Assembly (NCBI GenBank): GCA_964645535.1
Contig: CAZYCQ010000006.1
Span: 27,137 to 91,136 of the forward strand
Length of the DNA stretch: 64,000 nucleotides
Source of the DNA: an uncultured archaeon
GTDB lineage: Archaea > Asgardarchaeota > Heimdallarchaeia > Heimdallarchaeales > Kariarchaeaceae
Reading direction: 5' to 3'
The first letter of the stretch is position 1, and each line of letters opens with the position of its first letter. The translations under genes were made by a program, and so were the position numbers. A model generated the notes under the pieces. It saw only the letters and a list, made by a program, of their open reading frames with translations, had not been told where the DNA came from and did not search any database. Below are positions 904-49,602 of this stretch, piece by piece.

Positions 904-936
904 TACGATCAGAGATATAAATCGATTTCTAGAAAA

Positions 937-1566: not shown

Positions 1567-1576
1567 TCCTTTCCTC

Positions 1577-3213: not shown

Positions 3214-3222
3214 TGGTATCCC

Positions 3223-3633: not shown

Positions 3634-3699
3634 TACTCATTATTTTAATTCATCATTAAATAATCCTTTGGGAACAAAATGATGAAATTTTCACATTTG

Positions 3700-4710: not shown

Positions 4711-4722
4711 AACATAACCTCC

Positions 4723-7489: not shown

Positions 7490-7539
7490 AAAAGAAATTC
7501 AACGAATTAGTTTAAATTCTTGTCCCTTCTAGTCAAAGT

Positions 7540-9369: not shown

Positions 9370-10917
9370 TTATGAAATAAGACCTCTTTTCGCTTTCTCG
9401 TATACCTTGTCTGGATTGGAATAGTAGTCTGCGATTTGGGCACTGACATCCCTGAAGTGACGGATCTGCTTTTTCACCAAATAGCGAAGGACGGTTTCCC
9501 TTTTTTCGATTTCATCCCAGCATTCCTTGTCCGTCATGCCAGTTATGCCTTTGATTTTCTCGATGAGATAAGATCGACCGAAGAAGGTAAAGTTGTCCTT
9601 TGCAGCATTCCATGCATAGACCTTATTGGTGATAATCTGTTTTGTGATTGGATCAAGATCAATGATTTCCGAAATTTCAACGGCTCGTCTTGCGAATTTT
9701 CCTTGGGTCCGAACTTTTTTCTGAATATGGATCAGATCCAATGCTTTGATCATCGCTCGAGGTACGTTCATTGGTGCAGATTCAAGCCTTCCAATAACAC
9801 CTTGAACGCTATCACCGTGGATGGTTCCCATACCGGCGTGACCAGTCGACATGGCTTGGAACAGGGTATATGCTTCTTCACCACGGATTTCACCTACGAT
9901 GATGAAGTCAGGTCTCTGACGCATTGCAGCTCTCAGGAGATCGTACATGGTAATTTCTCCTCGTTGGGTTCCATCAGAGTTCTTGGTTCCGAACCCGCCT
10001 CTTGAAACAGATGGAATCCAGTTTTCTAGACCGATGTTCAATTCAGCAGTATCCTCAATGGAAATGACCTTGAGATCAGGTTTCAGTAACATTGAAAGAG
10101 CATTAAGGAATGAGGTTTTTCCAGCCGCAGTACCTCCAGCAATTAACAATGACATTTGGTGCTCAATAACAAACCAGTAATATGCGGCAATCTTGGAATC
10201 AATGGTATTGGATAGAATCAGATCTGTGATTGTCCATGGATCTGCCCGGAAACGACGGATGGTAAATGTGCTACCTTTTTGAGTCACCTCTCTTCCAAAG
10301 GACATCTGGATACGGGATCCATCAGGAAGTGAGGCATCAAGAAGTGGGTTTGCTATGGAGATATGGCGTCCAGATCTTTGCGCCAATTTGATAATAAAGG
10401 AATCCAGCTCATTTTCATCAGTGAAAACGATGTTTGTGGCCATGGATTCATATTTTCTGTGCCAAACATAGATCGGGACGTTCAACCCATCGCAAGAGAT
10501 ATCCTCAATCATGTGGTCATGGAATAGGGGATCGATGGGGCCATATCCAATAAGATCTCTTTCAATATAATACATCAATTTGTCTTGTACTGGTGCTGGA
10601 ACCTTTAGCCCATACGTCTTCAGGGTATCAGTGACCATTTTCTTTAGATATTCCTGGGCTTTTCCTTCATTGGAAAGGACATTGAAATCAACGTCAAGCT
10701 CCTCTACAAGCACTTCCTTGATGAATTTGTATAGCCGTTCCTCTTCAGGGGTAAGTGGACTTTCCATTACCTGATAATAGGTTCGCTTGCTGACTGGATC
10801 CGTTTGGATAGACGCAAGCGAAAATGGAGGCTTCAATGGATAGTTTTCGAGAAGAAATGGCATTGTAGATTCCAAATCCGAAGTTTGGTCAAAATCGGGT
10901 ACTTCTATCTTGGACAT
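9370..10917 (-). CDS. FlaI/VirB11/GspE-family secretion ATPase (archaeal type IV pilus assembly ATPase)
   Basis: Walker A LLIAGGTAAGKTSFLNAL, Walker B-like KVISIEDTAELN, and GEIRGEEAYTLFQAMSTGHAGMGTIHG. Confidence 0.85.
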   Translation of the reverse strand: MSKIEVPDFDQTSDLESTMPFLLENYPLKPPFSLASIQTDPVSKRTYYQVMESPLTPEEERLYKFIKEVLVEELDVDFNVLSNEGKAQEYLKKMVTDTLKTYGLKVPAPVQDKLMYYIERDLIGYGPIDPLFHDHMIEDISCDGLNVPIYVWHRKYESMATNIVFTDENELDSFIIKLAQRSGRHISIANPLLDASLPDGSRIQMSFGREVTQKGSTFTIRRFRADPWTITDLILSNTIDSKIAAYYWFVIEHQMSLLIAGGTAAGKTSFLNALSMLLKPDLKVISIEDTAELNIGLENWIPSVSRGGFGTKNSDGTQRGEITMYDLLRAAMRQRPDFIIVGEIRGEEAYTLFQAMSTGHAGMGTIHGDSVQGVIGRLESAPMNVPRAMIKALDLIHIQKKVRTQGKFARRAVEISEIIDLDPITKQIITNKVYAWNAAKDNFTFFGRSYLIEKIKGITGMTDKECWDEIEKRETVLRYLVKKQIRHFRDVSAQIADYYSNPDKVYEKAKRGLIS

Positions 10918-11073: not shown

Positions 11074-12132
11074 ATGGCCACTACTGACCAATACCTTCTC
11101 TCCATAGGTCATATGCTTAAAGATCACCTTGTTGATGAGTTGGAAAAATTCTACAGGCGAAAGGTGAATCATTTCGATATCCATAGCATTCAGTCTCAAG
11201 AACGGTTTGGTGCGACAGGATCTCTGATCATTGCAAAATACAGTATTTCCACGGACATAGGAGATTTTGACAGGCATCTTGCCATCAAGTTCAACCCCTC
11301 GAAAGAAAGTGCTTTAGAGGAATTGAAAAACGCCATTCTTTTAGAAAACCAATTTTTTTCATTTCCCCAGTTTGGAGTTCCGAAAGTCCTCTTCATGTCT
11401 ACTTCAGATCCAAATGTGTTGATCTATGAAGGAATTGAAGGGATAAACTATGATGAAATTGAGGAAAAGGGAAAATTGCCATATCTTGCGGGACAACTTC
11501 TCGCCCTGATCCATGGAGGAGAGATTCGACCGGTTCAGGAGGAGCTATACCGGGATCTTGCCAGAATATTGGGAAGAAAGCTTGCAACTACCGGCAAGGA
11601 GTTGGAAATTTCTCAAGCGATGGGAGGGGCATTCAATACCATTCAACAGGCCTCTTCAGGATGCAATGCTTTTTCCGATTTTCACCAAAGCAACGTAATG
11701 GTGACATTTTCAGATGGAAAACCAATAAAGATGTGGGTCATTGATCCTGAATTCATGCAGGAAGGTTCTTTTGATCGGATGGAGGATGTGGGGACATTTT
11801 TTGGGTTTCAATTTCTCAAGGAATACCAGATTGCAGGTACTTATGAACAGGCCAAGATTGATCTTCTTCAGTTTTTGCGAGGGTATGATTCCATATTCTA
11901 CCAACTTTCGGGCAGGCGCCTTTTCGAGATATATCCTCATGGTTTCCCCATTCAGTTCTTCATTGCATTTTGGGTTCTCATGGACGGCTTGGATCTAGCA
12001 GAAAACCGATTGAATGATCCAACATTCAGCCATCCTGAAATACAGGATAGAATTGATTTTGCTTTGAAATTCTTGAGAGATCAAAGTTTCATCAATTTCA
12101 TCAATAAAGAAATGACTAAGAAATTAGGTTAA
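11074..12132 (+). CDS. protein kinase-like fold phosphotransferase (APH/ChoK-like family)
   Basis: FSDFHQSNVMV resembles the HxDxxxxN catalytic loop and WVIDPEF resembles the IDxE/DFG-equivalent. Weak assignment by eye. Confidence 0.45.
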   Translation: MATTDQYLLSIGHMLKDHLVDELEKFYRRKVNHFDIHSIQSQERFGATGSLIIAKYSISTDIGDFDRHLAIKFNPSKESALEELKNAILLENQFFSFPQFGVPKVLFMSTSDPNVLIYEGIEGINYDEIEEKGKLPYLAGQLLALIHGGEIRPVQEELYRDLARILGRKLATTGKELEISQAMGGAFNTIQQASSGCNAFSDFHQSNVMVTFSDGKPIKMWVIDPEFMQEGSFDRMEDVGTFFGFQFLKEYQIAGTYEQAKIDLLQFLRGYDSIFYQLSGRRLFEIYPHGFPIQFFIAFWVLMDGLDLAENRLNDPTFSHPEIQDRIDFALKFLRDQSFINFINKEMTKKLG

Positions 12133-13563
12133 ATTGATTCGTGGGAAGCTCTGCAATCTAGGACGAATTTTCGGAATAATTCCAAGCCTTTCCAAAAGAC
12201 CGACACGTCCAGGTTGCAGAAGGTAGAAATCTCTTGCGAGTTCAGGATCAAGGACGTATCTTCCATCAAAAACAATTTTGTTCGAGAGCAACAAGGGATT
12301 GAGTTCCTTAAATTCCTGATGGTCAGTCACAATGATTACGATGCTTGCCCAATCCAAGGCCTTTTCCAATGACTGATCTTCAAATCCGATGCCATTTCCA
12401 AAGAGGCGGTCAATTTCTTCGGCAGAATAGAGGGGATCAAAGATTTTAACTCCCAACGGATTTTTTTCTCTTACCAGAGGTAACAATCTGAGTGTGGGAG
12501 AGAGGCGGTGTTCTTTTACTCCTCCTCGATAGGCCAAACCTAGAACCAGCACATTTCTCTTCCAATCAGGTGTTACAAGATCAATCATATCGAGGGCATA
12601 CTCGACCATGTAGTCATTTGTCAATCTTCCTTCCACAAAGATTGTGGGAAGAAACTCATTTTCCTTCCCTTTTTGGATGACAAAATGTGGATAGACAGGA
12701 ATGCAATGACCTCCAACTCCGATACCGGGGGTGTGAATATGCGAGAAGGGTTCGGTATTTGCAACCTGTATAACTTCAAGAATGTCCACTCCTAGGCTGT
12801 CAGCAAGAATTGCCAATTGGTTGGCAATAGCGATATTGGCATCTCGATAGGCACCCTTGAAGGTTTTTATGGCTTCTGCCGTTGTTGCATCAGAAACCTG
12901 GATGACTCCCTTGACAACAAATTGTTCGTAAAGAATTTTAGCGAGTTCTCCACTTCTCTTATCGACACCACCAACAATTTTCGGATAATTCTCTTCAATA
13001 TCCTTTATCGCCCTTCCCGAAAAAGTCCTTTCTGGAGCAAAAACCAGTCCAAAGTCGGAACCGATTCGATATCCCTGTTCTTCAAGGTATGGAGCAATGA
13101 CCTCAGCAGTGGTTTTTGGAGGCAGAGTGCTTTCCTGAATGAAAACGGCGCCCTTTGGAGCCATTTGCGCAAGATTGCGGTATGTCTCAAGCAATCCATC
13201 CAAAGCAGCATTTCCGTGGTCGTCTGTAAGTACAGGAATGATAATCACAATGAATGAGGTACCATCTACCGCTTCCCCTACATCAGTGGTGGCATGGAAG
13301 AGTCCTTTCTTCACGGCTTGTTGCAATCTTTCAGGAACTTGGGGTTCATCAATGATTGTTTCTCCCCGGTTCAGCATTTCCACAGTTTCAGGGACGATGT
13401 CAAGCCCTTTGACATTGAATCCTGCATTGGTGAAAACAGTAGCCAAAGGAAGACCCATTTTGCCAAGCCCGACCACTGTCACCGTTACATCCCGGGCTTC
13501 AATCTTTCGTCTTGCTTCTTCTAGATTGACCGTAAGAATGGACACAATTGGAGATAGGAACAA
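12124..13563 (-). CDS. nucleotide-sugar dehydrogenase (UDP-glucose / UDP-ManNAc dehydrogenase family)
   Basis: NAD-binding VTVVGLGKMGLPLATVF and the catalytic Cys motif GVGGHCIPVYP. Confidence 0.85.
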   Translation of the reverse strand: MFLSPIVSILTVNLEEARRKIEARDVTVTVVGLGKMGLPLATVFTNAGFNVKGLDIVPETVEMLNRGETIIDEPQVPERLQQAVKKGLFHATTDVGEAVDGTSFIVIIIPVLTDDHGNAALDGLLETYRNLAQMAPKGAVFIQESTLPPKTTAEVIAPYLEEQGYRIGSDFGLVFAPERTFSGRAIKDIEENYPKIVGGVDKRSGELAKILYEQFVVKGVIQVSDATTAEAIKTFKGAYRDANIAIANQLAILADSLGVDILEVIQVANTEPFSHIHTPGIGVGGHCIPVYPHFVIQKGKENEFLPTIFVEGRLTNDYMVEYALDMIDLVTPDWKRNVLVLGLAYRGGVKEHRLSPTLRLLPLVREKNPLGVKIFDPLYSAEEIDRLFGNGIGFEDQSLEKALDWASIVIIVTDHQEFKELNPLLLSNKIVFDGRYVLDPELARDFYLLQPGRVGLLERLGIIPKIRPRLQSFPRINLT

Positions 13564-13993: not shown

Positions 13994-15352
13994 ATGAATG
14001 TTGACCATATATTCCGAGCTTACGACATTAGGGGGATCGTTGGCGAGGATTTGACGGAGGAAGTAATTAATCGCATTGGAAAGGCCTTTGCAGTTTTCAT
14101 CAGGAAGCGGGGTCATGATGTCGTGGCTGTTGGAGGCGACATAAGAGGAACCACATCGGAACTTCAACGGTCTCTTATTAATGGGATCACCGAAATGGGA
14201 GTCAATGTCCATCTTGTGGAGACGGGCCCCTTGGGATTGGCTCTCTTTGAATCCTTCGATCGAAAACTTGGAGCAAGTGCTTTTGTTACAGCTTCCCATC
14301 TCCCACCTGAATGGAACGGAGTTAAGTTCTATTGGGGGGAGGGAATAGGCTTTTCTCCTGAGGAAAACGAAGAAATCCACGACTTGTTCAGACAAAATGA
14401 ATTTGCCCCTGCTGAGAAACAGGGAACTGTCGAAAAGGTCTCCACTTACCAAAGATATGTAGAATATCTGAAAGATAAGTTTGCTTTCGAAAAAGATCAT
14501 GTGATCGGTGTTGATTGCGGCAATGGGGCAACTTCAGTCATAATGCCCCAACTTTTTGAGGATCTAGGATTCAAGGTTTACTCCATATTCGACGAGCCTG
14601 ACCCCACCTTTCCCAACAGAACATCGGAACCAAATGCAGAATCTCTCAAGAAATTTGGAGAATTCCTGAAAACAAAGACAGTTGAATTTGGGGCGGGATT
14701 TGATGGAGATGGAGACAGATGCGTTTTCACAGACGAAAATGGACAGGTCATTCCATCAGACAATGCTGGACTAATCATTGCAGAATATCTTGTCAAAACC
14801 AGTGGCAACCCCAGAGTCATCATCAATGAGGAATGCAGCAAAATTGTTGAAGATGAGCTTAAAAAAATGGGTGCTGAGGTTAAACGAATACGAGTTGGGC
14901 ATTCATTCCTTTCTTTGGAGGCAAAGGCAACTAATTCGATCTGGGGAATTGAGGCTTCAGGCCATGCAGTTGCACCTGAAATCTTTCTTTTCGACGATGC
15001 CCTTATACTCCCCTTGCTTATGGCAAAGGCTTTGGAATATCATGGAAAACCCCTTTCCGAACTGAATTCGAAAATCCCTTCCAGCGTTCGACAGCGATTT
15101 GACTTGAAATGCAATGATTCAGTCAAGTTCGAGTTGGTGGAAAAGCTTACCAAAATTTACAAGGAAAGGTATGCTCAAGTCAGCACTCTTGATGGAGTAT
15201 CTGTTACCTTGCCTGAAGGGAGAGTTCTTGTCAGAGTATCCAATACTAGTCCAAAAATACGCGTGACTGTTGAAGCCCTGAATCAGGAAGATTTTGAAAA
15301 CCTTCAAAAACGGTTCCTGCCAGAAATCCAAGACATGATCAATGGTTCTTGA
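13994..15352 (+). CDS. phosphoglucomutase/phosphomannomutase family protein (paralog 1)
   Basis: IFRAYDIRG, phosphoserine loop VTASHLPPEWNGVKF, metal loop GFDGDGDRCVF, and LVRVSNTSPKIRV. Confidence 0.85.
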   Translation: MNVDHIFRAYDIRGIVGEDLTEEVINRIGKAFAVFIRKRGHDVVAVGGDIRGTTSELQRSLINGITEMGVNVHLVETGPLGLALFESFDRKLGASAFVTASHLPPEWNGVKFYWGEGIGFSPEENEEIHDLFRQNEFAPAEKQGTVEKVSTYQRYVEYLKDKFAFEKDHVIGVDCGNGATSVIMPQLFEDLGFKVYSIFDEPDPTFPNRTSEPNAESLKKFGEFLKTKTVEFGAGFDGDGDRCVFTDENGQVIPSDNAGLIIAEYLVKTSGNPRVIINEECSKIVEDELKKMGAEVKRIRVGHSFLSLEAKATNSIWGIEASGHAVAPEIFLFDDALILPLLMAKALEYHGKPLSELNSKIPSSVRQRFDLKCNDSVKFELVEKLTKIYKERYAQVSTLDGVSVTLPEGRVLVRVSNTSPKIRVTVEALNQEDFENLQKRFLPEIQDMINGS

Positions 15353-21208: not shown

Positions 21209-21556
21209 ATGGAAGATCGTATTATTCGGGAGCAATTTGAGGAAGTTTTGGATTATTTTCATGGTAATCGTTTTCGTATTTTATCGGATCGAGATGTTGA
21301 CGGTCATCGTACGGTTACGTTATCTAAGTACGGAGCAATATTGGTTTTGGTTTTGGAGGGTAATGTGATAGCTTTTGACACGTATGCAGATTTGAAGGCA
21401 GGCATTTATGAGTTGGGTGAATTGAATACGTTGGTCAGTGTTATGCTTCAGGCGAAGCGTATGTGTTTGGATCGTGGTTTTCGTGAGATGAATACAACGG
21501 AGCGTCTTTATCCTAGGGATCGTCGTGGTTCAGAGACACGGACGTCAGGCTTGTAG
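21209..21556 (+). CDS. hypothetical protein with atypical codon usage
   Basis: 115-aa ORF. Almost all Arg codons are CGN (mainly CGT), and the coding strand is very C-poor and G+T-rich, unlike neighbouring host genes. Confidence 0.5.
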   Translation: MEDRIIREQFEEVLDYFHGNRFRILSDRDVDGHRTVTLSKYGAILVLVLEGNVIAFDTYADLKAGIYELGELNTLVSVMLQAKRMCLDRGFREMNTTERLYPRDRRGSETRTSGL

Positions 21557-21579: not shown

Positions 21580-22887
21580 TTAGTATGCTTTGTATGGTAT
21601 GAGGAATAGTTTGCTTTGGAAGATAAACCAGAATAGGAGTAGTTGGAACATTAGAGTGATGAAGAGTGATGATGCGAAAGCTATTGGATATCTTGATTGA
21701 TTTTTCTTGACGAGTTTTGAGTATCCTATACCTACGAGGAATACATAGATGAAGAACATTAGGAATATTGGCAGAGCGACGAGGAATAGGAATGGGAGTG
21801 TATCTTTTTCTTCGATGGACAGTTCTTCACTGGATGGGTGGAATCCTACAAGTTCTTGGTAGAAAATTCCTGCGAATAGTTGTGCGAATGCTAGTACGAA
21901 TATGGCAATTCCTGCGAGGAGTATAGCGCTATTCATGAAATTTTTGGAGAAATTTCCGGTGACGAGTCCGATGACCAAAGGTTGGAGGATGATATATGAT
22001 AGTAGTACACCGAATATCATGAGGTAGAAGCTGATCCAGAATTGTAAAAATCCAGCATTTGCTTCATTTGCTCGTATTGAGTTGATGCTGAATGTATTAA
22101 AGCTAAGGAAATAGAAGAGTCCTTTTCCATTTACGACGATTGATGTGAAGAATGAGGAGCTGATGAATGCGAGAAATAGGAACCACCACGGGAGTATTTC
22201 AGCGTATGCACCTCTTGTAGGTCGTGTAATGAATTCAGGGATGAACTTGAGCATACTTTTGACTTCTTCTGATTTTGACACGAGGAATGAGGTAATAAAT
22301 CCGGGCACCAGAAGGAAGATTGCATAACTTGCGAGGGTGATGGCGAACTGTGTTGGGCTGATGCTCAGAGCCACAAGGAGGTTATTGGTGATTGAAATAG
22401 CTGGGCTGTTGTTGAGGAAGAACATGGGGAACCAGAATGCGGAGAAGACGATTGCAAGAAGTGCCAAGGTTGTCATGATGAGTTTTGGTTTTTGGGGGAC
22501 GTTATTGTACCATAGTTTTTCTTCGACGACCTCATCAACGATTGGTTCGAAGTCGTCGAGGATTCTTCCATCGATTTGGAGATCTTGGTATTTTTCCCTG
22601 AATCTGGAGATGAATTCATTGAGGAGTTCTTGTGCATCTCCTTCGTCCATTCGTTTATCAAGTGTGAGGACGAACAGGAGGTCGGCCTGTCTTTCCTTGA
22701 AGATGGTTCGGACGTTTTGGAGGTCGAGGTTTTCGATTTTTTCTCCTTCGGTTTCGGCGGTCATGCTGTAGACTGCGCTGATAAGTCCAGCGGTCAAAGA
22801 TACATCAGTCTCGATTTCTTTTTGGCTGAATTGTTTGGAGAAGTATATTTGTCCATAGGTTGTCATGACAAGCAGTGTCTTGATCAT
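21580..22887 (-). CDS. polytopic membrane protein with an N-terminal longin-like domain
   Basis: Start placed at MIKTLLVMTTYGQIYF (ATG 22887). The first ~105 aa follow a beta-beta-alpha-beta-beta-beta-alpha pattern (LLVMTTYGQIYFSKQF / LTAGLISAVYSMTAE / IENLDLQ / RTIFKER / LLFVLTLD / AQELLNEFISRFREKY), followed by about 8 hydrophobic helices. Confidence 0.6.
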   Translation of the reverse strand: MIKTLLVMTTYGQIYFSKQFSQKEIETDVSLTAGLISAVYSMTAETEGEKIENLDLQNVRTIFKERQADLLFVLTLDKRMDEGDAQELLNEFISRFREKYQDLQIDGRILDDFEPIVDEVVEEKLWYNNVPQKPKLIMTTLALLAIVFSAFWFPMFFLNNSPAISITNNLLVALSISPTQFAITLASYAIFLLVPGFITSFLVSKSEEVKSMLKFIPEFITRPTRGAYAEILPWWFLFLAFISSSFFTSIVVNGKGLFYFLSFNTFSINSIRANEANAGFLQFWISFYLMIFGVLLSYIILQPLVIGLVTGNFSKNFMNSAILLAGIAIFVLAFAQLFAGIFYQELVGFHPSSEELSIEEKDTLPFLFLVALPIFLMFFIYVFLVGIGYSKLVKKNQSRYPIAFASSLFITLMFQLLLFWFIFQSKLFLIPYKAY

Positions 22888-23141
22888 TGTCTCGTACCTA
22901 AAGAGACGGCTTTCACATATAAATGGAACGGATTCCTGATTGGAATTTGCAAGAGAATGGAGGTGGAGAAATGTGCAAGATACACCGAAGGGGTTTAAAT
23001 ACCGAATCAAGGTTTAATAATTTCCAAGATCGGTGATGCATTTCGGAATTTTTTTCATAAACCATAATTGTTATAAATATATCCTCGATAATTGGTTTAT
23101 TTCTTGGAAAAATTGATGAATTTTTCCGAGAGGTGAGATAT

Positions 23142-24545
23142 ATGAAAGGTAAAGGAATAAATGCAATCCTTCTGAGTCTGGTTTTCCTCATGTCCTTCAT
23201 GTTGGTTGGGCAGATCAATGGAAATACCAACGTTCAAATGATCATTCCTGACGTAACGACTGATGAATATGCAGTTGAATTTTTCACGGAATTTGATGCA
23301 GGGACAGGGAGCGGAACGCTTCCGACATTGGAGCCCTTTTGGACTGACATAGTGAATACCGAAAGAGTGGAAGAAACCGGGGAAGATGTCTATGTTGCGG
23401 TATTGGATACCGGCTTGTTGCCACAGTGGGACTTTTTCTTTTCTGAAGCGAATATTGCAGCGGATTTGGGAGTTGGGTTCACGCATGACATTTTCTTTGA
23501 TTCCAGCGGCAATTTGGTGGTTGGTCCATTGAAACAGGTTGGTTTTGTTACAGAATTGGCGAGTGGTCATGGGACTCATGTGACAAGTACAATTGTTGGG
23601 TTCAACCTGAACAACCAGGTGTGGGTTGATGGGATTGCCCCAGAAGCGACAATCATTCCAGTGAGAGTTCTGGATGCTTGGGATCTCGGTGGCGGGTTGA
23701 GGCTGAGTGGTGGATTCAATGACATGATTGCAGCAGGGATCATGTACGTTGCCGATCTAGCGGATGAATTGGATGGCAAGATCATAATAAACATGTCTCT
23801 TGGTGGACCAAATCCTTCGCAATTGATTGAAGACGCCATCAACTATGCGATAAGCAAAGGAGTGATCGTTGTGGCCTCAGCCGGCAACAGCGGGTTCAAT
23901 GGGATGGGATATCCCGGGGCATTTTCCCAGGTGATTTCGGTGGGTGCTGGAGGCTGGACAGACATGTTCACGAATTGGTGGGACACAGGAGCTCCAGAAC
24001 AGCTGAACGTACCTGATTCTTTGGGCAATGAGATGCAACTGTACCTTGAGGATTTCAGTTCTCGTCCGAATCCTCTGTTGGGGCAAACCACAGATCTTCT
24101 TGATGTGACCGCTCCCGGTGCTTGGGTGGTTGGTCCATTCAAGAGTTCATTCAGGGAGAACACAGGATATTATTTTCTTTCAGGGACAAGCATGGCGGCT
24201 CCCCACATTAGTGGGATTGCGGCCTTGGTAGCGGAGGAGGAAGAAGATGTCACACAGGCACAGATGGAAATTCTGCTCAAAATTGCGGCTAGTGGGGAAG
24301 ATTTCAATGCTTTCAGAGGCTTCCCGTTTATCGGCAATGATGTCAAGGTTGCGTTTCCCTTTATTCCGGGAGGATTCTACACTGTATCTTGGGGATTAGG
24401 GGAATTCGGGACAGGCTTTATAGATGCGGAAGTTGTCATGGAATTGGCGCATGAACTTGATGATGATGATGATGGATTCAATGACCTGATTGCAGATCTA
24501 TTGGAAAAGTTGGAGGATTTTTACGAGGATCTCTTTGAAGATTGA
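23142..24545 (+). CDS. secreted subtilisin-like serine protease (peptidase S8) with acidic C-terminal tail
   Basis: Catalytic triad motifs YVAVLDTGL, GHGTHVTSTI and GTSMAAPHISGIAAL. Signal-like N-terminus. GAGGTGA lies 7 nt upstream of ATG 23142. C-terminal DDDDDG...EDLFED. Confidence 0.85.
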   Translation: MKGKGINAILLSLVFLMSFMLVGQINGNTNVQMIIPDVTTDEYAVEFFTEFDAGTGSGTLPTLEPFWTDIVNTERVEETGEDVYVAVLDTGLLPQWDFFFSEANIAADLGVGFTHDIFFDSSGNLVVGPLKQVGFVTELASGHGTHVTSTIVGFNLNNQVWVDGIAPEATIIPVRVLDAWDLGGGLRLSGGFNDMIAAGIMYVADLADELDGKIIINMSLGGPNPSQLIEDAINYAISKGVIVVASAGNSGFNGMGYPGAFSQVISVGAGGWTDMFTNWWDTGAPEQLNVPDSLGNEMQLYLEDFSSRPNPLLGQTTDLLDVTAPGAWVVGPFKSSFRENTGYYFLSGTSMAAPHISGIAALVAEEEEDVTQAQMEILLKIAASGEDFNAFRGFPFIGNDVKVAFPFIPGGFYTVSWGLGEFGTGFIDAEVVMELAHELDDDDDGFNDLIADLLEKLEDFYEDLFED

Positions 24546-24550
24546 AGTAA

Positions 24551-24652
24551 ACGTAAGATGTAGATGAATCATATTTTTATATTAAACGTAGATGAATTAT
24601 ATTTCAAACGGATTTACGTGTAGATGAATTACGTCTGTTTGTAGATGAACCG
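24551..24652. repeat. four direct copies of ACGT(N0-6)GTAGATGAA[TC], duplicating the EF-2 gene 3' end
   Basis: GTAGATGAA at 24560, 24588, 24620 and 24641. On the minus strand each is TTCATCTAC (F-I-Y) followed within 2-3 codons by a stop. Confidence 0.6.
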
Positions 24653-26872
24653 TGCCCAAGTGTCGATTGTTGGAACTTCTTCTTTGAGACCGTTTCTCTT
24701 TCTGATGAAGGCGATTTTCTCGTCTCGCAGATGGGGTGGAACTTCCTCGAAGTGGCTGAACTGATATCCAAAGAAACCTCGTCCTGCGGTGGCACCACGG
24801 ATTTCATCAGCCAGTCCCACAGTCTCGGATGTTGGGATGAGACCCTTGATCATGTTGGAACCGCCTGCTTCCTTGATTTCTTGGATGATCCCTCTGTGCT
24901 GTGTCAGAAGGCTGGTAATGGCGCCGACATATTCAGGGGGTGCCTTGATATCGATGGTAAGCATGGGTTCGAGCAATTTGGGACCTGCTGTGAGGTAACA
25001 GAGGTTACATGCAGCGGACACCATTGCCATGATTTCGGTCAATCCCGTGTGAGCCGGATCTGTGTGGACGGTTGCATCGGTCATGACGAAGAGAACGCCC
25101 ATCAGGGGTTCTCCAGCAAGGGTTGCTTTTCTTGTGAATTGCTTCCAGGTGTTGATGACGAATTCCTTGATTCTTTCAAGTCTTTGAACACCTTTGGTGG
25201 ATTCAATGAAGAGATTGGTGTCGGAAGATGCCCAGAATCCTCTGAAGAATTTTTCGTCGAATTCGGGATATTTTTCGGTGTCCATATGTTGTGCCAAGAG
25301 TTTGGCTCTTTCCTTGGTATCCATCATGGTAAGATCCTTTCCTTCCTTGAGGAAGTCGATCATGGACTGTGGCAGGGGATAGAGCTTCATCTGGATTCTG
25401 TTGTGTCCATTGGGTGACTTGGTGGTGAATACCTCGGATTCTTTTGAGATGGTTTCCCTGTGGACAATGACTGGATCAGAAACTTCGATCGGAACCTGTT
25501 CATTGATACGGGTGATAAGGATCTCGATTTGGAGGGGATCAATTCCTTGGAGGGTATATTTCTTGGTTTCGGGATCCATTTCATAGGAGGCAGTTGGGTC
25601 TGCCATGATCCAAGTACTGATGACCTTGCCCAATTTAGCGACATCGGTCTGTTTCTTGGGGAAGATAGACCTTGAAACAACAGGTTCGGCGGCATATGAA
25701 ATGGCTTCGAATCCGGGAATGTTTGTTCCCTCTCTTGTGAAGGATTCACCGGCGGGACAAATGAAGCCGTCTGCTGCGAAGAGGTTTCCGGCAGGGATCT
25801 TTGGAACGGGAAGGATGTCATCAAGTTCCATGACACCAAGTCTTGTGATGTTTGCCTTTTGTCGTCCGTTGATGAGATAGATCTTGTCGGTATCCTTGAG
25901 TGTTCCTGAGAATACACGTCCGATGAGCGTTGGTCTCTTGGTTCTTGGATGGATGAAGATCTTGGTGATCATTCCAAGGAGTGGTCCATTGGGATCACAA
26001 TTCAACAGTGCCTGACCGGCTTCGGATTCAAGGTCACCGGGCCAGATTTTGGGGATCTTGATTTTTTGGGATTCGCGGGGGTTGGGTAGGTGTTGGATAA
26101 CCATTCTGAGAAGGGCGTCATCCAACGGAAGGTTTTTCCTCAACCAAGCCTTGTCATCCTCAGCATACTTCTGGAAAACTGACTGTGGAGTAAGCTTCTT
26201 TTCCTTGAGGATCTCAACAGTGAATGCCCATCCGTCTTTTGCGGAGCCTACAGCAACGGAGTTGTCTTGGAAGGAGACCCTCCAGCTCTTCTTGAATTCT
26301 TTTGGAACGATTGCCTTAATCTTGTTGTTGACTTGTGAGACGATGATGTCCAATCTAGAGAATACATCCTTGGGATCAAGCTTCAGTTCAGAGATCAATC
26401 GGTCTACCTTGTTGATGAAAAGGACTGGTTTACAGAATTCTTCACCGACAGCCAGTTGGATGTTTGTTTCAGTCTGTGTCATCATTCCTTCAAGGGCGTC
26501 TACAAGGATAATTGCACCATCCGAACCACGGAGGGCTCTTGAGACTTCACCCGTGAAGGAAAGGTGACCGGGAGTGTCGTTGATTTGGAAGATGTAGTCA
26601 TTGACCGTTCCGTCTTCTTCTGTGTATTGGTAAGAAAGGATGACAACAGTTGTGAAAATAGTAATTCCTCTTTCCTGTTCTTCCTCGTCTAGGTCAGTCA
26701 TCCTTTTGTCTCCAGCAGTTTCAGCAGACATGAGACCAGCCTTTGCCAGAAGGTAGTCTGCGGTGGTGGACTTCCCATGATCGATATGAGCTGCAATAGA
26801 GAAGATTCTGCGCAGCTCGATGGGATGATTCATGATCATGTTCCTGATTTCTTCGGTGTTCTTTACTTTCAT
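24629..26872 (-). CDS. fusA: translation elongation factor 2 family GTPase (aEF-2) with a non-canonical diphthamide loop
   Basis: G1 AHIDHGKST, G3 DTPGH, G4 NKVD, 747 aa. Strong C-ending codon bias typical of highly expressed genes. The domain IV loop reads DATVHTDPAHTGLTE. Confidence 0.9.
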   Translation of the reverse strand: MKVKNTEEIRNMIMNHPIELRRIFSIAAHIDHGKSTTADYLLAKAGLMSAETAGDKRMTDLDEEEQERGITIFTTVVILSYQYTEEDGTVNDYIFQINDTPGHLSFTGEVSRALRGSDGAIILVDALEGMMTQTETNIQLAVGEEFCKPVLFINKVDRLISELKLDPKDVFSRLDIIVSQVNNKIKAIVPKEFKKSWRVSFQDNSVAVGSAKDGWAFTVEILKEKKLTPQSVFQKYAEDDKAWLRKNLPLDDALLRMVIQHLPNPRESQKIKIPKIWPGDLESEAGQALLNCDPNGPLLGMITKIFIHPRTKRPTLIGRVFSGTLKDTDKIYLINGRQKANITRLGVMELDDILPVPKIPAGNLFAADGFICPAGESFTREGTNIPGFEAISYAAEPVVSRSIFPKKQTDVAKLGKVISTWIMADPTASYEMDPETKKYTLQGIDPLQIEILITRINEQVPIEVSDPVIVHRETISKESEVFTTKSPNGHNRIQMKLYPLPQSMIDFLKEGKDLTMMDTKERAKLLAQHMDTEKYPEFDEKFFRGFWASSDTNLFIESTKGVQRLERIKEFVINTWKQFTRKATLAGEPLMGVLFVMTDATVHTDPAHTGLTEIMAMVSAACNLCYLTAGPKLLEPMLTIDIKAPPEYVGAITSLLTQHRGIIQEIKEAGGSNMIKGLIPTSETVGLADEIRGATAGRGFFGYQFSHFEEVPPHLRDEKIAFIRKRNGLKEEVPTIDTWARFIYKQT

Positions 26873-26972: not shown

Positions 26973-27665
26973 TTAGATCAATGATTTAAGGAATGCTATG
27001 ATCTGTTTCTTTCCAATTTTTGAGGTGCCGTATTCTCTATTTCGGAAGACATAACCGAACTCACAGATTTTTCCATCCTTAGGGAAGACCTTCAGCACAT
27101 CAAAAAGGAATTTGTATCCCGTAAATTCGAGGATTTTGTCATTTTCGGCATATTTTGTGAGAACACTGGTTTTACCTCCGAAGAATCCTGACATGATATC
27201 CTTTGGGATTTGCTTTCTTCTGAGTAATAGGGAGATTTTGCCAAGTGTCTGAGCCCCTACAGAAATCAATTTTCTTGTAAAGGGCCATTCCTCGATATGA
27301 TCTCGTCTGCCGATAATAAGATCCGGATCTTGATCCATGCATGCAATGGCATCCTGAATGGATTCAGGGGGGTGTTGAAAATCTCCATCCATTATGATGA
27401 ACCACTCGGTTTCGGTATGAAGTATGCCATCCCTTATTGAAATTGTCAATCCCTTTACGGGTTCTGATTGTCTATCAAGTAATCTGACATTTGGATATTT
27501 TTTTGATTTTTCTCGAACGATATCCGTTGTCTTGTCCGTTGAGCCATCATCCACCACGACAATGTGTATCCCGGGATAGAGTTCTTGGATTTTGTCTATT
27601 AAGCGACCGATATTTTGTTCCTCATTTAGGGTCGGGACGATTACCGTAATGTTGGAAAATTCCAC
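26973..27665 (-). CDS. family 2 glycosyltransferase (dolichyl-phosphate mannose/glucose synthase-like)
   Basis: ITVIVPTLNEEQNI, VVVDDGSTDKT and MDGDFQHPP. Confidence 0.8.
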   Translation of the reverse strand: MEFSNITVIVPTLNEEQNIGRLIDKIQELYPGIHIVVVDDGSTDKTTDIVREKSKKYPNVRLLDRQSEPVKGLTISIRDGILHTETEWFIIMDGDFQHPPESIQDAIACMDQDPDLIIGRRDHIEEWPFTRKLISVGAQTLGKISLLLRRKQIPKDIMSGFFGGKTSVLTKYAENDKILEFTGYKFLFDVLKVFPKDGKICEFGYVFRNREYGTSKIGKKQIIAFLKSLI

Positions 27666-27848: not shown

Positions 27849-28979
27849 ATGAGTATACTTTTTTGGGCATTCATCATTTCGCATGGGTTGAATGTCATTG
27901 GTTCGATCCTGATTATGATTCCGTTAATCCGTCTTTATTACCGAACAGGAATTTCTCTTGTAAATATCATGATCATGTTGTTTGGGGTATGGGGCATAAC
28001 CAACTTGCTTCTTATCATCCCAAATGTTCTTGAAATTCAGATTTTACCAATAGCACTGGCAAATATTATCGGTTCGGCATTTGCACCTGCGTTATTCCTT
28101 TTGTTTGCGGATAGGTTCGAAGGGAGAGTTTCCCCTCTCAAAACATCGGTAGCCGTCTCAATGATTCTTTTATCCATTTTCGTGGTTATTGTGAGCTTAT
28201 GGACAGGAATACTTGACATTGCAACAGTTGTGCTCATTATTGAATCGGAATCCTTGATCACCATGAGATGGGCAGAGATACCATCTCTTTTTCTTTTTCC
28301 GGGAATTCTTCTTACTGGATATTGGGTCAGGCAGGAGTTGAAGAGCACAGGTGAGCATGCGATTGATGAAAGGCAGATTGAACAGATTAAGTGGATGCAA
28401 CGGGGGAATTCGTTGACATTCTTCATTGGACCGATTTTTGGTGCTATTGGAGTGATACTGGTTTCTTTGGACAATCCGATGGCAGGAACTTGGGCATCGG
28501 AAATAATCGGATACCTGATTGTTTCGGCCGGTGTATTCATCTTTGGGATTAACTATCTGCTATCACCGGAAGTGGCATTCCTTCAACCTCAACGGGTGGA
28601 TACCTTATTGGTTCTTCATGAGACAGGTGTTCCGGTGCTCCGGTATGATTTTCGACCACCAGAGATTGAAGCAGATACAGCATTGGTCAGTGGAGCCATT
28701 ACCGCCATTACTGCAATTATGAATGAGGCGTTCGGAGTGAAATCCATGGTCAGGTCAATTCATTTTGAAGACAAAGAGTTGATGCTCCAATTTGCAGATG
28801 GTCTTGCTTTTGTGCTTATTGCAGACAGAACTTCGATTTTCCTTGAAAGCTCTCTGAAAAGGTTGAAAGAAGAGTTTGAATTAAATTTCATTGAGAAATA
28901 TGATTTTGGAGGTGGGGAAATTCTGGATCAGGCAATATTTTTGCCTGCGATCCTCAAAAGTTTCGGACTGAAAAGTTGA
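27849..28979 (+). CDS. polytopic membrane protein with a C-terminal longin-like domain (paralogous to the domain of 21580..22887)
   Basis: About 7 N-terminal TM helices, then VDTLLVLHETGVPVLRYDF...ALVSGAITAITAIMNEAFG...VRSIHFEDKELMLQFADGLAFVLIADRTS...LKRLKEEFELNFIEKY (about 28596..28976). Confidence 0.6.
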   Translation: MSILFWAFIISHGLNVIGSILIMIPLIRLYYRTGISLVNIMIMLFGVWGITNLLLIIPNVLEIQILPIALANIIGSAFAPALFLLFADRFEGRVSPLKTSVAVSMILLSIFVVIVSLWTGILDIATVVLIIESESLITMRWAEIPSLFLFPGILLTGYWVRQELKSTGEHAIDERQIEQIKWMQRGNSLTFFIGPIFGAIGVILVSLDNPMAGTWASEIIGYLIVSAGVFIFGINYLLSPEVAFLQPQRVDTLLVLHETGVPVLRYDFRPPEIEADTALVSGAITAITAIMNEAFGVKSMVRSIHFEDKELMLQFADGLAFVLIADRTSIFLESSLKRLKEEFELNFIEKYDFGGGEILDQAIFLPAILKSFGLKS

Positions 28980-29008
28980 TTCCCGAAAAATTATTCAGAA
29001 ATCCATTC

Positions 29009-30178
29009 ATGACAGATAGGAGTAAAAACCAAGGGATTTTGATTGGGGACATGGAAGTTTTGAGCGAGAATGAGCTTCGGTTATATTGTCCATTGAAGTG
29101 GCATGAAGGGATTCCTGAAGGCGGAATAGGATTAGGTATTGCAGACATTGATTTCAAGGGACCAGAAGGGATAGTTGAATGGATTTCCTCAAGATTGACG
29201 GAAGAATATCATTTCTATCAGAAACGGGAGGGGTTGGATTTTGCCATTGAGGCAGTGAAAGAATTTTTGAAGAGGAAGGAAATGGCGAATGCAACGATCC
29301 AATTGATACCGGGTACAATGGCAGGAATTTATGCAAGCATGAAATTTGCGTCTTCAATGGAAGGAGAGGTAGCAATTGTCAATCCAATCTATCCACCAGT
29401 GCATTTCCACGCCTCATCGGAAAAAAACAGGATCGCGTGGGTAGGTCTTGATGACCAATATCGATTGGATCATGACAGCCTTCAGGAAACAGTGTCAACT
29501 GATACAAAACTGCTTGGGATTGTTCATCCAAACAATCCAACAGGAACAGTTTTCACAGACGAAGATTTTCGATTGATCCGGGATTTGGCAGTTGATTATG
29601 ACTTTATCTGTTTCTCTGATGAGCTGTATGACCCATTGGCATTTAATGGGGCAAAAAAAAGCCTTGGCTCATTTGAAGGGATGGAAAACAGAACAATCAC
29701 ACTCTTCGGTTTTTCCAAGGCCTATGGACTTGCAGGATTGAGAGCAGGATTTATGGCAATTCAGCTTCAGGATTCAACAAAGATCCAGGAAATTGTGGAG
29801 CACCTATTGGTTTCTCCATCTCCTGTAACATCGATAGTGACAGAGTATGCATTGAAAGAAGAGAAAGTTTTGAAATGGGTGAAAGATTTCAGGGAGACCA
29901 TGAGAGTGAATATGGAATTTGCAAGCAAGGTGTTTGATGATGAAGGTTATAGCTGTCCAAAACCAGATGGCGGGTTGTTTGTCTTTCCAGATATAGGAAA
30001 GAAAGATGATGTCAGGTTCTGTGATCAGCTTCTTCGGGAAAAAGGGGTTGAAGTGGTGCCTGGTTCAAAATTCGGTCCAGATGGAATTGGTCACATCAGG
30101 GTGAATTGTGCTACATCGATGGAAAGATTGGAAGATGGAATCGGAAGAATTATCGAATTTTTGTCTTATGATAAGTAG
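29009..30178 (+). CDS. class I/II PLP-dependent aminotransferase
   Basis: PLP-lysine motif FGFSKAYGLAGLRAG, and HPNNPTG. Start uncertain: TTG 28976, ATG 29009 or ATG 29051. Confidence 0.8.
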   Translation: MTDRSKNQGILIGDMEVLSENELRLYCPLKWHEGIPEGGIGLGIADIDFKGPEGIVEWISSRLTEEYHFYQKREGLDFAIEAVKEFLKRKEMANATIQLIPGTMAGIYASMKFASSMEGEVAIVNPIYPPVHFHASSEKNRIAWVGLDDQYRLDHDSLQETVSTDTKLLGIVHPNNPTGTVFTDEDFRLIRDLAVDYDFICFSDELYDPLAFNGAKKSLGSFEGMENRTITLFGFSKAYGLAGLRAGFMAIQLQDSTKIQEIVEHLLVSPSPVTSIVTEYALKEEKVLKWVKDFRETMRVNMEFASKVFDDEGYSCPKPDGGLFVFPDIGKKDDVRFCDQLLREKGVEVVPGSKFGPDGIGHIRVNCATSMERLEDGIGRIIEFLSYDK

Positions 30179-38528: not shown

Positions 38529-38842
38529 TGGAACTCAGGAAAATGCTCAGAGTGATTATCAGGCTACCAGGGGGAAAAAAATCCAAGGGGAGCCACAGTC
38601 TGGTCAAGGAAGTCCTCAAATTATGCAAAGAAGAGGGAATCATTGGAGCCACAGTCATTCAATCAATTTATGGATATGGGGACAAGGATTATGAGATCAG
38701 TATCTTGAGAGGCATCGGAGACCTTCCTCAAGTAATCGAGATAGTGGATGAACCAATTGTGATTAGAACCTTGCTACCTAAGTTGAAAGAATTGATAGAA
38801 AGTACAGGTTTGATCACCATAGATGAGGTATATTCGATTTAA
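38528..38842 (+). CDS. DUF190 (PII-like) protein commonly linked to crcB
   Basis: TGATG-coupled to crcB. About 104 aa; LRVIIRLPGG...LVKEVLKLCKEEGIIGATVIQSIYGYG fits the DUF190 pattern. Confidence 0.6.
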   Translation: MELRKMLRVIIRLPGGKKSKGSHSLVKEVLKLCKEEGIIGATVIQSIYGYGDKDYEISILRGIGDLPQVIEIVDEPIVIRTLLPKLKELIESTGLITIDEVYSI

Positions 38843-40221
38843 TCCCTATGTCGTTCAATAATCTGTTCCACGCTTCTTTTAAGGGAATTTAACCTCTCTT
38901 TGGTTTGGGCTTCAATCCTGTAGGATAACTTAGATTCGGTATTGCTACTACGAACCAAGAACCATCCATCTTTGAACTCCGCACGGATGCCATCTATTTC
39001 CAAAAGGTCAGCCCCATTTGCTATGGCAAATTCACGGAGCTCATCGAAGATACCTTCATGCCTGGCTCGTTCGATCTTCAGTCTGATTTCTGGTGATGAA
39101 TGATAGGTGGGATACTGATTCCTTATGGCATCAAAATCCAAGCCAGAAGATTTCATCTCTGAGAAGATTTTAAGGAAACGAATAGCGCTGTAAAGACCAT
39201 CGTCGAATCCAAAATAATCATCGTTGAAATAATAATGACATGACAGTTCTCCAGCAAGGTCAAAATTTTCTTCAAGAACTAGTTCTTGGATATATGAATG
39301 TCCAACTTTAGAAAGCCTGCATATCCCACCCTTTTTTTCGATGTATTCTGAAGTTGCCTTGCTGATTTTTACATCGAGAACAACTGAAGGGGATTTGACT
39401 TTGAGAATATCATCAAAAAACATCATCATCACTAAATCAGGAGAGATAATGTTCCCATCCGGTCCCATAAAACCAACTCTGTCGCCATCACCATCAAAAA
39501 CTATTGCAAGCTCTGCATCATTGGATTCAATGAATTTTTTCACGAATTCATAGGATTTTTCCTTTGTAGGATCTGGATTCAGAATTGGAAAATTCCCTTT
39601 TGGCTCTTCATGGAGGTGTTTCGCTTCAAAAGGCAATACTTCTCGAAATCTTCCAGTGCACCCATTTCCGTATTCAACAACCAGATTTAGGGGAGAGATT
39701 GACTTTGCGGTTTCTTTCAGGAAGGAGAAGTAGGCGTCCTGCAATTCTATATCGATTTTATGGGTTCCTTTGGATTGGTTGCCTGCTTCCATTTTTTTTC
39801 TTTTGAAATCTTTTTTAGTCAATTGGATTTTGGTTTCAATTGCATTGAAGAAATTTTCATAGCTGAGGGAAACACCGTCTTCATTGCAAACTTTGAACCC
39901 ATTAAACTCAGGAGGGTTATGTGAAGCTGTAATCGCGATACCTAGGTCAAAGGATTTTGAGTTGGCCAACGTGAAATACAACATTGGAGTGGGCCCCATC
40001 CCAATATCAACAGTGTTTACACCCATTTCATTCAAACCCTTACAAAGAGCTTCTTTTAGCTTAGGGGTAGACTCTCGAGCATCTCCAGAAACAACAACAG
40101 AACCTTGGAAACCAAGATAATCTGCCAATGTCCATCCGAGCTTTTCTGCAAATCCCTCATTGATTTCATCAGGGAAAATCCCTCTGATATCGTTTGCAAG
40201 GAAAATTTTAGAATTTTTCAA
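38839..40221 (-). CDS. phosphoglucomutase/phosphomannomutase family protein (paralog 2, canonical motifs)
   Basis: ITASHNPPEFNGFK, VFDGDGDRVGF, GELSCH, LVRSSNTESK. Confidence 0.85.
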   Translation of the reverse strand: MKNSKIFLANDIRGIFPDEINEGFAEKLGWTLADYLGFQGSVVVSGDARESTPKLKEALCKGLNEMGVNTVDIGMGPTPMLYFTLANSKSFDLGIAITASHNPPEFNGFKVCNEDGVSLSYENFFNAIETKIQLTKKDFKRKKMEAGNQSKGTHKIDIELQDAYFSFLKETAKSISPLNLVVEYGNGCTGRFREVLPFEAKHLHEEPKGNFPILNPDPTKEKSYEFVKKFIESNDAELAIVFDGDGDRVGFMGPDGNIISPDLVMMMFFDDILKVKSPSVVLDVKISKATSEYIEKKGGICRLSKVGHSYIQELVLEENFDLAGELSCHYYFNDDYFGFDDGLYSAIRFLKIFSEMKSSGLDFDAIRNQYPTYHSSPEIRLKIERARHEGIFDELREFAIANGADLLEIDGIRAEFKDGWFLVRSSNTESKLSYRIEAQTKERLNSLKRSVEQIIERHRD

Positions 40222-40312
40222 CGTGTTAACTGATTACTTCCGGTTTTATTATTTTTCGAAACCTTCTGGACTGCACCGCCATAATTATTTAACGTTTAGC
40301 ACCTATTGGGGT

Positions 40313-41731
40313 ATGAACAATTCAGGATCCTTGAGATTTCATTTCTCCACAACAGGGATCAGAGGAAATGTTTCAAAGGACTTAACCCCACAATTTTGCT
40401 TTGAAGCAGGACGTGCAATTGCCAATTGGGCAAAAACACATATGATCGAGAATCCAAAGGTCCTTATCGGGAGGGACTATCGGTTTTCATCGGATTTAAT
40501 ATTATCATCCTTATTGTCTGGACTGCTTGCAGAAGGACTTAATGTGAACATCATAGAAGATCAGGCCCCTACCCCGGCGATAATACAGTATTTATTGGAG
40601 AAATCCTATGATATCGCAATAATCGTGACTGGAAGTCATCTTCCCCCTGAAGACAATGGGATTATTTTGGTTGACGGAAAAGGCAATTATTTCAGAGGAA
40701 TTTTGGAATCAATGCCAGAATCAGGAAATGTTTCATGGTCTGAATTCGGTTCTTTTGGTCTGGTGCACGATTATTTATCCACATATCTCAGTCATCTAAG
40801 AGAATTTGCATCACAATTGCAATTAACAAAACAGGATCTAAGAATCTTTTTAGATCCAGTTGGCGGGCCGATGGCAAAACCTCTTTCCAAGATCTTACAG
40901 GAGTATGTTGAGGACGTTGTTGGGATTAATCTGGATCCAAATCCCAAAATTGATTTCAGACCATCGGAACCGAAGCCGGAAACTCTTGTGAAAACGTTGG
41001 ATTATTTCAAAGGTGGAATCTTTGATCTAGGGATCACAACTGATTTTGATGGAGACAGGGTCATTTTCATTACCCCTTCAGGAAGAATCCTTACTGGAGA
41101 TTATATTGGGGCGGTTATTGCAAAATACTTTTGGGAACTTGATTCTTCAAGCAAGGTTGTAATTCCAATCAATACATCTGCAATAATTTCAGACCTTTCC
41201 AAAAAAATGAATACAAAATTTGTTTATTGTCAGGTGGGAGCACCCAAAATCATCGAGAAAATGAAGGAAACGGACGCGATTTTTGGGTTTGAGGAGACAG
41301 GGAAGTACTTTTTCAGAGATTTCTGCCTTTATCCAGACAGTGCTGTTACATCATTGTTTTTGCTTCATATTCTGCAACAAACAGGTCAAACCTTAGACGA
41401 TTTGATACAAGAATTACCTACCTATTTCCAATTGAAAACCAAGACACCCTCAGCTCGCGAAACCTCAGACGTACTAATGAAAAGATTGGAATTGGATCTA
41501 GACGATCTCGTTTCATCTCTTGGTGATGGGGTTGAGATCATTCAAATCCACAAATTGGATGGTCTTAGGATAGATTTCTCAGATGGGTCATGGCTCCTTC
41601 TCAGGCAATCAGGAACTGAAGACAATTTAAGAGTCTTTTCCGAAAGCAAATCAGAAGAAATAGCTAAAATGCTGAATGACAAAGGTTTGGCATATGTCAA
41701 ACAAAAACAAAAGGAACTTAAATTGCTCTAG
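40313..41731 (+). CDS. phosphoglucomutase/phosphomannomutase family protein (paralog 3, divergent motifs)
   Basis: Start placed at ATG 40313 (MNNSGSLRFHFSTTGIRG). VTGSHLPPEDNGI, TTDFDGDRVIF, FGFEETGKY, LLRQSGTEDNLRV. Confidence 0.8.
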   Translation: MNNSGSLRFHFSTTGIRGNVSKDLTPQFCFEAGRAIANWAKTHMIENPKVLIGRDYRFSSDLILSSLLSGLLAEGLNVNIIEDQAPTPAIIQYLLEKSYDIAIIVTGSHLPPEDNGIILVDGKGNYFRGILESMPESGNVSWSEFGSFGLVHDYLSTYLSHLREFASQLQLTKQDLRIFLDPVGGPMAKPLSKILQEYVEDVVGINLDPNPKIDFRPSEPKPETLVKTLDYFKGGIFDLGITTDFDGDRVIFITPSGRILTGDYIGAVIAKYFWELDSSSKVVIPINTSAIISDLSKKMNTKFVYCQVGAPKIIEKMKETDAIFGFEETGKYFFRDFCLYPDSAVTSLFLLHILQQTGQTLDDLIQELPTYFQLKTKTPSARETSDVLMKRLELDLDDLVSSLGDGVEIIQIHKLDGLRIDFSDGSWLLLRQSGTEDNLRVFSESKSEEIAKMLNDKGLAYVKQKQKELKLL

Positions 41732-48747: not shown

Positions 48748-48850
48748 CTGAAAAGGATTTCCTTTAATGGTTTGCCGTATTTTGAAATGAAAGCAGTTAA
48801 TTTATAAACACCTACACTTTTGATAGCTAAGACCCAATAGAGGTGATTAC

Positions 48851-49594: not shown

Positions 49595-49602
49595 GTGGTA
49601 AT

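Follow-up and report, generated by a model that had tools for sequence, protein, structure and literature searches.

In a 64,000-nucleotide stretch of DNA from an uncultured Asgard archaeon of the family Kariarchaeaceae (contig CAZYCQ010000006.1, originating from a hot-spring metagenome), hereafter the window, two genes encode predicted membrane proteins that we refer to as protein A and protein B (Table 1). These proteins very probably share a single cytoplasmic domain of the longin/roadblock fold, with the element order of the longin type, and nothing else: in A the domain comes after a bundle of seven transmembrane (TM) helices, and in B it precedes an unrelated membrane domain of seven helices. 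These are the only two copies of the domain in the window. For each protein 12 close homologues were found in an index of 5.8 billion proteins, and AlphaFold2 (AF2) models built from alignments of 12 sequences reached a mean pLDDT of 83.8 and a pTM of 0.77 for A, and 82.2 and 0.79 for B. The reading frame of B extends in the 5' direction to a TTG at 23010 (22888..23010, minus strand), and the deposited annotation (D6732_28185) starts at this TTG, 41 codons ahead of the ATG, giving 476 amino acids (aa). As nearly all B homologues start at MIKTL (two begin slightly further in and are probably truncated), we consider the shorter form of 435 aa correct.

Residues ~245-376 of A are homologous to residues 1-130 of B. 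BLASTP of A 247-376 against B 1-133 gave one alignment of 119 columns with an E-value of 3e-8 (single comparison), and all five segments that the initial annotation had paired by eye between the C-terminal domain of A and the N-domain of B fell inside it. Comparison of profiles with hhalign gave a probability of 88% (E 3e-6) for the close families of A and B, which rose to 98.4% (E 1e-14, 117 columns) when 108 A-type domains were compared with 21 B-type domains. Formal pairwise and profile alignment thus found the proposed similarity to be significant. Additionally, a hidden Markov model (HMM) made from A-type domains only scored the B protein of the window with 53 bits, and together with the profile-profile match this places the similarity far beyond chance. 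The pairwise identity of just 34%, with 14% gaps, would by itself be compatible with a resemblance due to chance or composition. However, the matches between independent family profiles and the A-only HMM score refute that explanation, the fold models of A and B show the same topology, and we regard it as next to impossible.

The initial annotation had called the domain longin-like, and the order of its strands and helices, its structural neighbours and its sub-threshold profile matches all agree with this. In both AF2 models the elements follow the order beta-beta-alpha-beta-beta-beta-alpha-alpha without an N-terminal helix, which is the longin order. In A these are strands 250-257 and 262-267, helix 275-293, strands 303-305, 310-316 and 319-325, and helices 330-346 and 365-371; the corresponding elements of B are strands 2-9 and 14-19, helix 29-47, strands 53-55, 59-66 and 70-77, and helices 82-100 and 111-124. 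Foldseek searches of the PDB with B returned longin or roadblock proteins throughout the top 50, including Trs23 (E 3.5e-4), sigma2, sigma3 (TMt 0.71), Bet5, Mon1-Ccz1, BLOC-3, LAMTOR, MglB and the longin domain of VAMP7. The matches of the A domain were sigma-adaptins, zeta-COP, Bet5/Trs23/sedlin, Mon1-Ccz1, Fuzzy and LAMTOR, with E-values of 9e-4 to 2e-2 and TMt up to 0.69.

Among the Pfam profiles, Clat_adaptor_s matched B with an E-value of 0.0018 and 18.7 bits, under its cut-off of 22.5, and no longin profile matched A. Sub-threshold matches to Fuz_longin_1, Robl_LC7 or Sybindin were present in 5 of 64 A-type members, and one family member matched Robl_LC7 with an E-value of 2.8e-4; all sub-threshold matches of the domain belong to the longin/roadblock clan. 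NCBIfam has no model for A or B, and neither the domain profiles nor the full-length family profile found a significant sequence match in the PDB. Several of these results count against the fold assignment. The pLDDT within the longin parts is moderate (48-85) and the underlying alignments are shallow (12 sequences), the Foldseek E-values are modest (3.5e-4 to 2e-2), and no Pfam longin model reached its gathering score in A, B or the 64 A-type members. From the models and the searches taken together we conclude that the shared module very probably has the longin fold and represents a subfamily missing from current profile libraries.

Conservation across the wide A-type family exceeded 90% at G260, F268, L279, G282, E293 and F372, and was 90% at A286. 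Of these residues, G260, F268, L279, G282, A286 and E293 sit in strand 2, in helix 1 and in the turn between strands 1 and 2. The glycine of this turn belongs to a G-[IVL]-P motif in A (G260-[V/I/L]-P262), not to a GP motif, and in B the G alone is present (G12).

The membrane parts are of two different kinds. The initial annotation had counted about seven TM helices ahead of the domain in A, and the AF2 model has seven, at residues 3-33, 36-60, 65-90, 96-119, 143-169, 174-206 and 210-238. A predicted extracellular beta-hairpin lies between TM4 and TM5, and its T138-M-R-W141 motif is invariant in the alignment columns of the close family. Conservation in the TM part is highest at F86 and F90, where TM3 ends on the cytoplasmic side, at Q176 in the TM5-TM6 region and at G228 in TM7; Q179 is conserved at 68%. 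Over 97 full-length A-type members, a mean of 9.6 lysines and arginines fell on loops 1, 3 and 5, and a mean of 1.9 on the N-terminus together with the even-numbered loops (2, 4 and 6). By the positive-inside rule the N-terminus is thus outside and the longin domain cytoplasmic. In B the inferred inside had a mean of 13.0 such residues and the outside a mean of 5.8, and by the same rule the longin domain is predicted to be cytoplasmic, with the N-terminus inside. Sequence conservation is good in the TM domain of B, which has prolines and polar residues within its helices and carries a cytoplasmic motif, RPTRGxYAEILPWWF, after TM2. Neither TM domain matched a Pfam or NCBIfam family, and hhalign gave a probability of 0.1% between them. 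A common origin of the two TM domains was rejected on this result, and the proposal that one soluble module sits on two different membrane scaffolds was borne out.

The wider family was collected by a HMMER scan of 1.84 billion cluster representatives (50% identity clusters) with a merged profile of the domain, which found 2013 clusters at E <= 1e-3 and 236 at E <= 1e-10. A crude hydropathy sorting of 173 sequences, made up of the 150 best matches and close homologues, placed most in the A type, with hydrophobic segments only ahead of the domain, and 21 in the B type, with such segments only after it; 22 had none and are fragments or soluble proteins. In iterated HMM searches, 104 of 110 N-terminal regions of the A type formed one homologous 7TM family. 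Within this family the conserved positions cluster in the longin domain and in the linker that joins it to TM7, and the TM part is highly variable apart from a few positions. All ten members with a named organism are Asgard archaea (Heimdallarchaeota, Hodarchaeota, Promethearchaeota/Lokiarchaeota, Ranarchaeia), and every GTDB record with a close relative of A bears the title Candidatus Heimdallarchaeota. One member carries the annotation "membrane protein of unknown function". A word-indexed protein search with a 64-sequence profile returned close relatives and nothing further. The 7TM-longin proteins are thus apparently a large family restricted to Asgard archaea.

The same domain type was also found on other modules. 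A soluble protein of 631 aa from a Heimdallarchaeota genome (P0161, in a cluster of 3 members) has the layout REC-longin-REC-longin, with the receiver domain ahead of the first longin copy recognized by Pfam (E 9e-9). At locus L005, which holds a homologue of A with 44% identity, a TPR protein of 585 aa (911..2668, minus strand) matches the same longin profile at its C-terminus (E 6e-8), and a second 7TM-longin paralogue of 377 aa (3012..4145, plus strand) lies 6 kb from the 44% homologue. Locus L001, from a relative in which A is 70% identical, encodes a protein of 674 aa (6537..8561, minus strand) that is absent from the window. Its signal peptide and NosD/beta-helix ectodomain are followed by one TM helix (~524-545) and, at the C-terminus, by a longin-like domain of this type, which the A-type profile matches with an E-value of 1.6e-7 and hhalign with a probability of 72%. 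This layout is that of a single-pass, receptor-like protein.

We tentatively favour a possible function in which A and B act at the membrane as a sensor or anchor that presents its longin domain as a docking platform. The membrane part would be the sensor or anchor and the longin domain, directly under the bundle, the output. This domain might dock a small GTPase of the Arf/Rag/Rab-like kind, or another longin/roadblock subunit as a dimer, and docking would then localize the partner at the membrane or switch it there. Such a role is suggested by analogy with solved longin and roadblock domains (TRAPP, Mon1-Ccz1, Ragulator, MglB, FLCN/GATOR1), which are dimeric platforms for small GTPases (PMC10933270, PMC12290439), by the many small GTPases and the longin-GTPase fusions encoded in Asgard genomes (PMC10933270, PMC4917890), and by the position of the domain as the conserved cytoplasmic end of many sensor-like modules. 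Fusions of longin with domains of two-component signalling have also been noted (Liu et al., bioRxiv 10.1101/2020.10.19.343400), which fits a role as signalling output.

A number of observations speak against this docking role. No small GTPase was found in 59 of the 60 window ORFs of at least 90 aa (all but the 109-aa ORF at 56..385), nor did one adjoin an A-type gene at any of the five loci inspected. In two of four loci small GTPases do lie 2-6 kb from B-type genes, namely Ras/Arf/Roc-type proteins at 3711..4676 (minus strand) of L004 and at 1931..2518 (minus strand) and 11727..12263 (plus strand) of L016. We judged this compatible with chance, since many small GTPases are reported for Asgard genomes (PMC4917890). 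The L004 protein, a Ras/Arf-like GTPase of 321 aa, is located between EF-2 and GT2, and no such GTPase is present at the corresponding place in the window. The extra domain of the L004 protein does not match the A/B longin profile, and this protein was rejected as a carrier of the same longin type. Longins that act as GTPase-activating proteins (GAPs; FLCN, NPRL2 and SMCR8/C9orf72) have a GP motif immediately ahead of strand 2 or at its start and a neighbouring arginine finger (PMC12290439), and this signature is absent as such from A and B. The wide family has no conserved arginine (R327 is conserved in the close A family only), and no FLCN, NPRL2 or SMCR8 chain was apparent among the top 50 Foldseek entry descriptions of the A and B searches.

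In a stronger form of the docking role, which we consider unlikely, the 7TM-longin proteins would be widespread GPCR-like surface receptors of Asgard archaea whose longin domain directly engages and switches Arf/Rag/Rab-like GTPases, as an exchange factor (GEF), a GAP or a scaffold. If so, they would represent a prokaryotic signalling route from receptor to small GTPase and a membrane-anchored forerunner or analogue of platforms of the Ragulator/TRAPP type, and interchangeable sensors (the two 7TM kinds, the beta-helix ectodomain, REC and TPR) would feed the same longin output.

It is rather improbable that the 7TM parts are transporters or channels and that the longin domain regulates or dimerizes them, as CBS or TrkA-type domains do, with no GTPase involved. 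A-type genes do have metabolic and transporter genes as neighbours and lack a signalling partner close by, longin and roadblock domains are known to dimerize (PMC10933270), and the well-conserved B TM domain with its intrahelical prolines and polar residues would suit a transporter. However, neither TM domain matches a transporter family of Pfam or NCBIfam, and the same longin type is fused to REC, TPR and beta-helix modules that have no part in transport. In the A family the TM part diverges fast and the longin part is conserved, which in our own inference is easier to reconcile with a sensor whose output stays constant than with a transporter. Distinctly improbable, in our view, is a domain that reads a metabolite in the cytoplasm and modulates the membrane part. 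Longins belong to a PAS/GAF-like superfamily that is present in all domains of life (PMC4917890), and the receiver fusion of P0161 is a classical context of prokaryotic signalling proteins. Against this, no GAF, PAS or ligand-binding domain appeared in the top 50 of either Foldseek search, Pfam gave no GAF or PAS match, and the conserved residues were judged to be fold-core and surface positions with no obvious pocket. The docking platform, held as tentatively as stated above, is the reading we retain.

The initial annotation had also placed a secreted S8 protease, an EF-2 and a Dpm1-like glycosyltransferase between the two genes, and this arrangement and the ORF coordinates proved accurate (Table 1).

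Table 1. Positions in the window of proteins A and B, their predicted parts and the genes between them.
Feature	Position	Strand	Description	Basis
Protein A	27849..28979	+	376 aa; 7TM domain, then C-terminal cytoplasmic longin-fold domain (predicted)	ORF, AF2
7TM bundle of A	27849..28568	+	residues 1-240	
Predicted extracellular beta-hairpin of A, TM4-TM5	28224..28271	+	residues 126-141; AF2 strands 126-131, 136-141	
Linker FLQPQR and predicted longin-fold domain of A	28581..28976	+	residues 245-376	
Protein B	21580..22887	-	435 aa from ATG; N-terminal longin-fold domain, then a different 7TM domain (predicted)	ORF, AF2
Predicted longin-fold domain of B	22501..22887	-	residues 1-129	
Membrane domain of B	21616..22482	-	residues 136-424; seven hydrophobic helices; predicted outside hairpin 256-265	
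S8 subtilase	23133..24545	+	between B and A	
EF-2-like GTPase	24629..26872	-	747 aa; between B and A	
GT2 glycosyltransferase	26973..27665	-	between B and A	

It had further been proposed that, if the domain recruits a partner such as a GTPase or coat-like protein to the membrane, A, B and the genes between them would be a candidate membrane-organizing system. The bracket of A and B around EF-2 is kept in L001, where two beta-helix genes are inserted. In L004, in which B is 53% identical, B, a 115-aa ORF, MoeA, GT2 and an EF-2 paralogue stay within about 10 kb, and these two arrangements would favour a common membrane-organizing or secretion-linked system of A, B, the S8 protease, the EF-2 paralogue and the Dpm1-like GT2. 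However, A is not within 10 kb of B in L004, and entirely different neighbours surround the 44% homologue of A, three distant A-type genes and two distant B-type genes. The bracket genes lie on both strands and are interrupted by the insertions in L001, and EF-2 is 83% identical in L004 where B is 53% identical; what persists is therefore ordinary short-range synteny. As the bracket is lost at 53% (B) and 44% (A) identity, it reflects such synteny and not a functional unit, and a single system of this kind is highly unlikely. The proposal was not upheld, and A and B are independent members of a toolkit, not parts of one operon-like system with EF-2.

The EF-2-like protein scored 617 bits against the archaeal EF-2 equivalog model (cut-off 738) and has the motif HTDPAHTG at residues 603-610 in domain IV, which we take to be the position of the canonical diphthamide-site motif of EF-2. 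Because of the score below the cut-off and this motif, it looks like a divergent EF-2 paralogue. The 115-aa ORF of the window (21209..21556, plus strand) is convergent with B and has no match among the families of Pfam and NCBIfam. ORFs of equal length are present near B in L004, with 49% identity to that of the window, and next to B in L001. On the other side, an aminotransferase ORF (28976..30178, plus strand, 400 aa as listed) has a TTG start that overlaps the end of A. Its L001 orthologue has 375 aa and starts 64 bp past A, and in the window, too, translation probably begins further in, at an internal ATG.

Elsewhere in the window, two T2SSF-type membrane proteins and a T2SSE/PilB-type ATPase (3700..5622 and 9370..10917, minus strand) indicate an apparatus of the type IV pilus or archaellum kind. 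At 8449..9300 a JAB/MPN protease is encoded, and a similar set is present near B in L004. Three phosphoglucomutase/phosphomannomutase paralogues (13994..15352, plus strand; 38839..40221, minus strand; 40160..41731, plus strand) are accompanied by a UDP-glucose dehydrogenase (12124..13563), GT2 and a nucleotidyl transferase (62831..63631). A cupredoxin/COX2-like gene, an unassigned ORF of 247 aa and the COX1 subunit of a haem-copper oxidase at 48364..51090 (plus strand) suggest an oxygen-respiring organism of the Heimdall group.

Expansions of longin/roadblock domains and of small GTPases are known in Asgard archaea, and how they act at membranes bears on the origin of eukaryotic trafficking and signalling. 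The 7TM-longin family offers concrete candidates, which can be expressed, for the membrane end of Asgard GTPase/longin pathways. Should nothing bind the conserved cytoplasmic face, the range of roles of Asgard longins would still be narrowed.

Among known membrane proteins, A resembles G-protein-coupled receptors (GPCRs) in its seven helices, the N-terminus outside and the C-terminus inside, the beta-hairpin between TM4 and TM5 and the cytoplasmic output surface. GPCRs of several classes were the only membrane proteins in the top 50 Foldseek matches of A, a ranking that may be biased as the PDB is GPCR-dominated. The matches of the 7TM part to class A and class C GPCRs were weak (E from 5e-3, TMq 0.30-0.42, 258-304 columns, root-mean-square deviation 6-9 Å), and a PDB profile match of the A family to the PGF2-alpha receptor (E 0.043) was within noise. 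No sequence similarity to the 7TM families of Pfam or the PDB was found, and no GPCR signature motifs were seen. Moreover, the output of GPCRs is a heterotrimeric G protein, whereas that of A would be the fused longin domain. We treated the resemblance as one of general architecture and not of membership. Longin SNAREs and plant phytolongins have an N-terminal longin domain and a membrane anchor, as B does. However, their anchor is a single C-terminal TM helix, which in longin SNAREs comes after a SNARE coiled-coil motif, whereas B has seven, beginning about 10 residues after the longin domain. In the AF2 model of B, the stretch that leads from the longin domain to TM1 forms no long helix of the SNARE kind (coiled-coil prediction was not run).

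Roadblock/LC7 proteins such as MglB and LAMTOR have their core fold in common with the A/B domain (TMt 0.55-0.71 in the B search), and they rank mostly below the top longins in the Foldseek list of B. The roadblock order is alpha-beta-beta-alpha-beta-beta-beta, with an N-terminal helix and no extra C-terminal helix, whereas in B strand 1 already begins at residue 2 and the domain closes with two helices, and strand 1 of A follows the TM7 linker. An expansion of longin and roadblock domains in Asgard archaea is ascribed to Klinger 2016 in PMC4917890. Domain shuffling of the expanded longins, with GTPases, TRAPPC3 and two-component domains, is likewise already described (Liu et al., bioRxiv 10.1101/2020.10.19.343400; Tran et al., PMC10933270). 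P0161 fits this pattern. For Asgard archaea, fusions of longin to multi-pass membrane domains, as in A and B, were not found described in the literature that could be searched; this did not extend to the supplementary asCOG tables by Liu et al., in which these proteins may have been catalogued. Ragulator is a membrane-attached GTPase platform, as is proposed here for A and B, but it is anchored by the lipidated LAMTOR1 and not by fusion to TM helices. The best Foldseek matches of A and B, with the same order of strands and helices, are the longins of eukaryotic trafficking, namely sigma-adaptins, zeta-COP, the TRAPP subunits Bet5, Trs23 and sedlin, Mon1-Ccz1 and Fuzzy/HPS1. Those are soluble subunits of complexes, whereas in A and B the domain is covalently joined to a membrane domain of seven helices.

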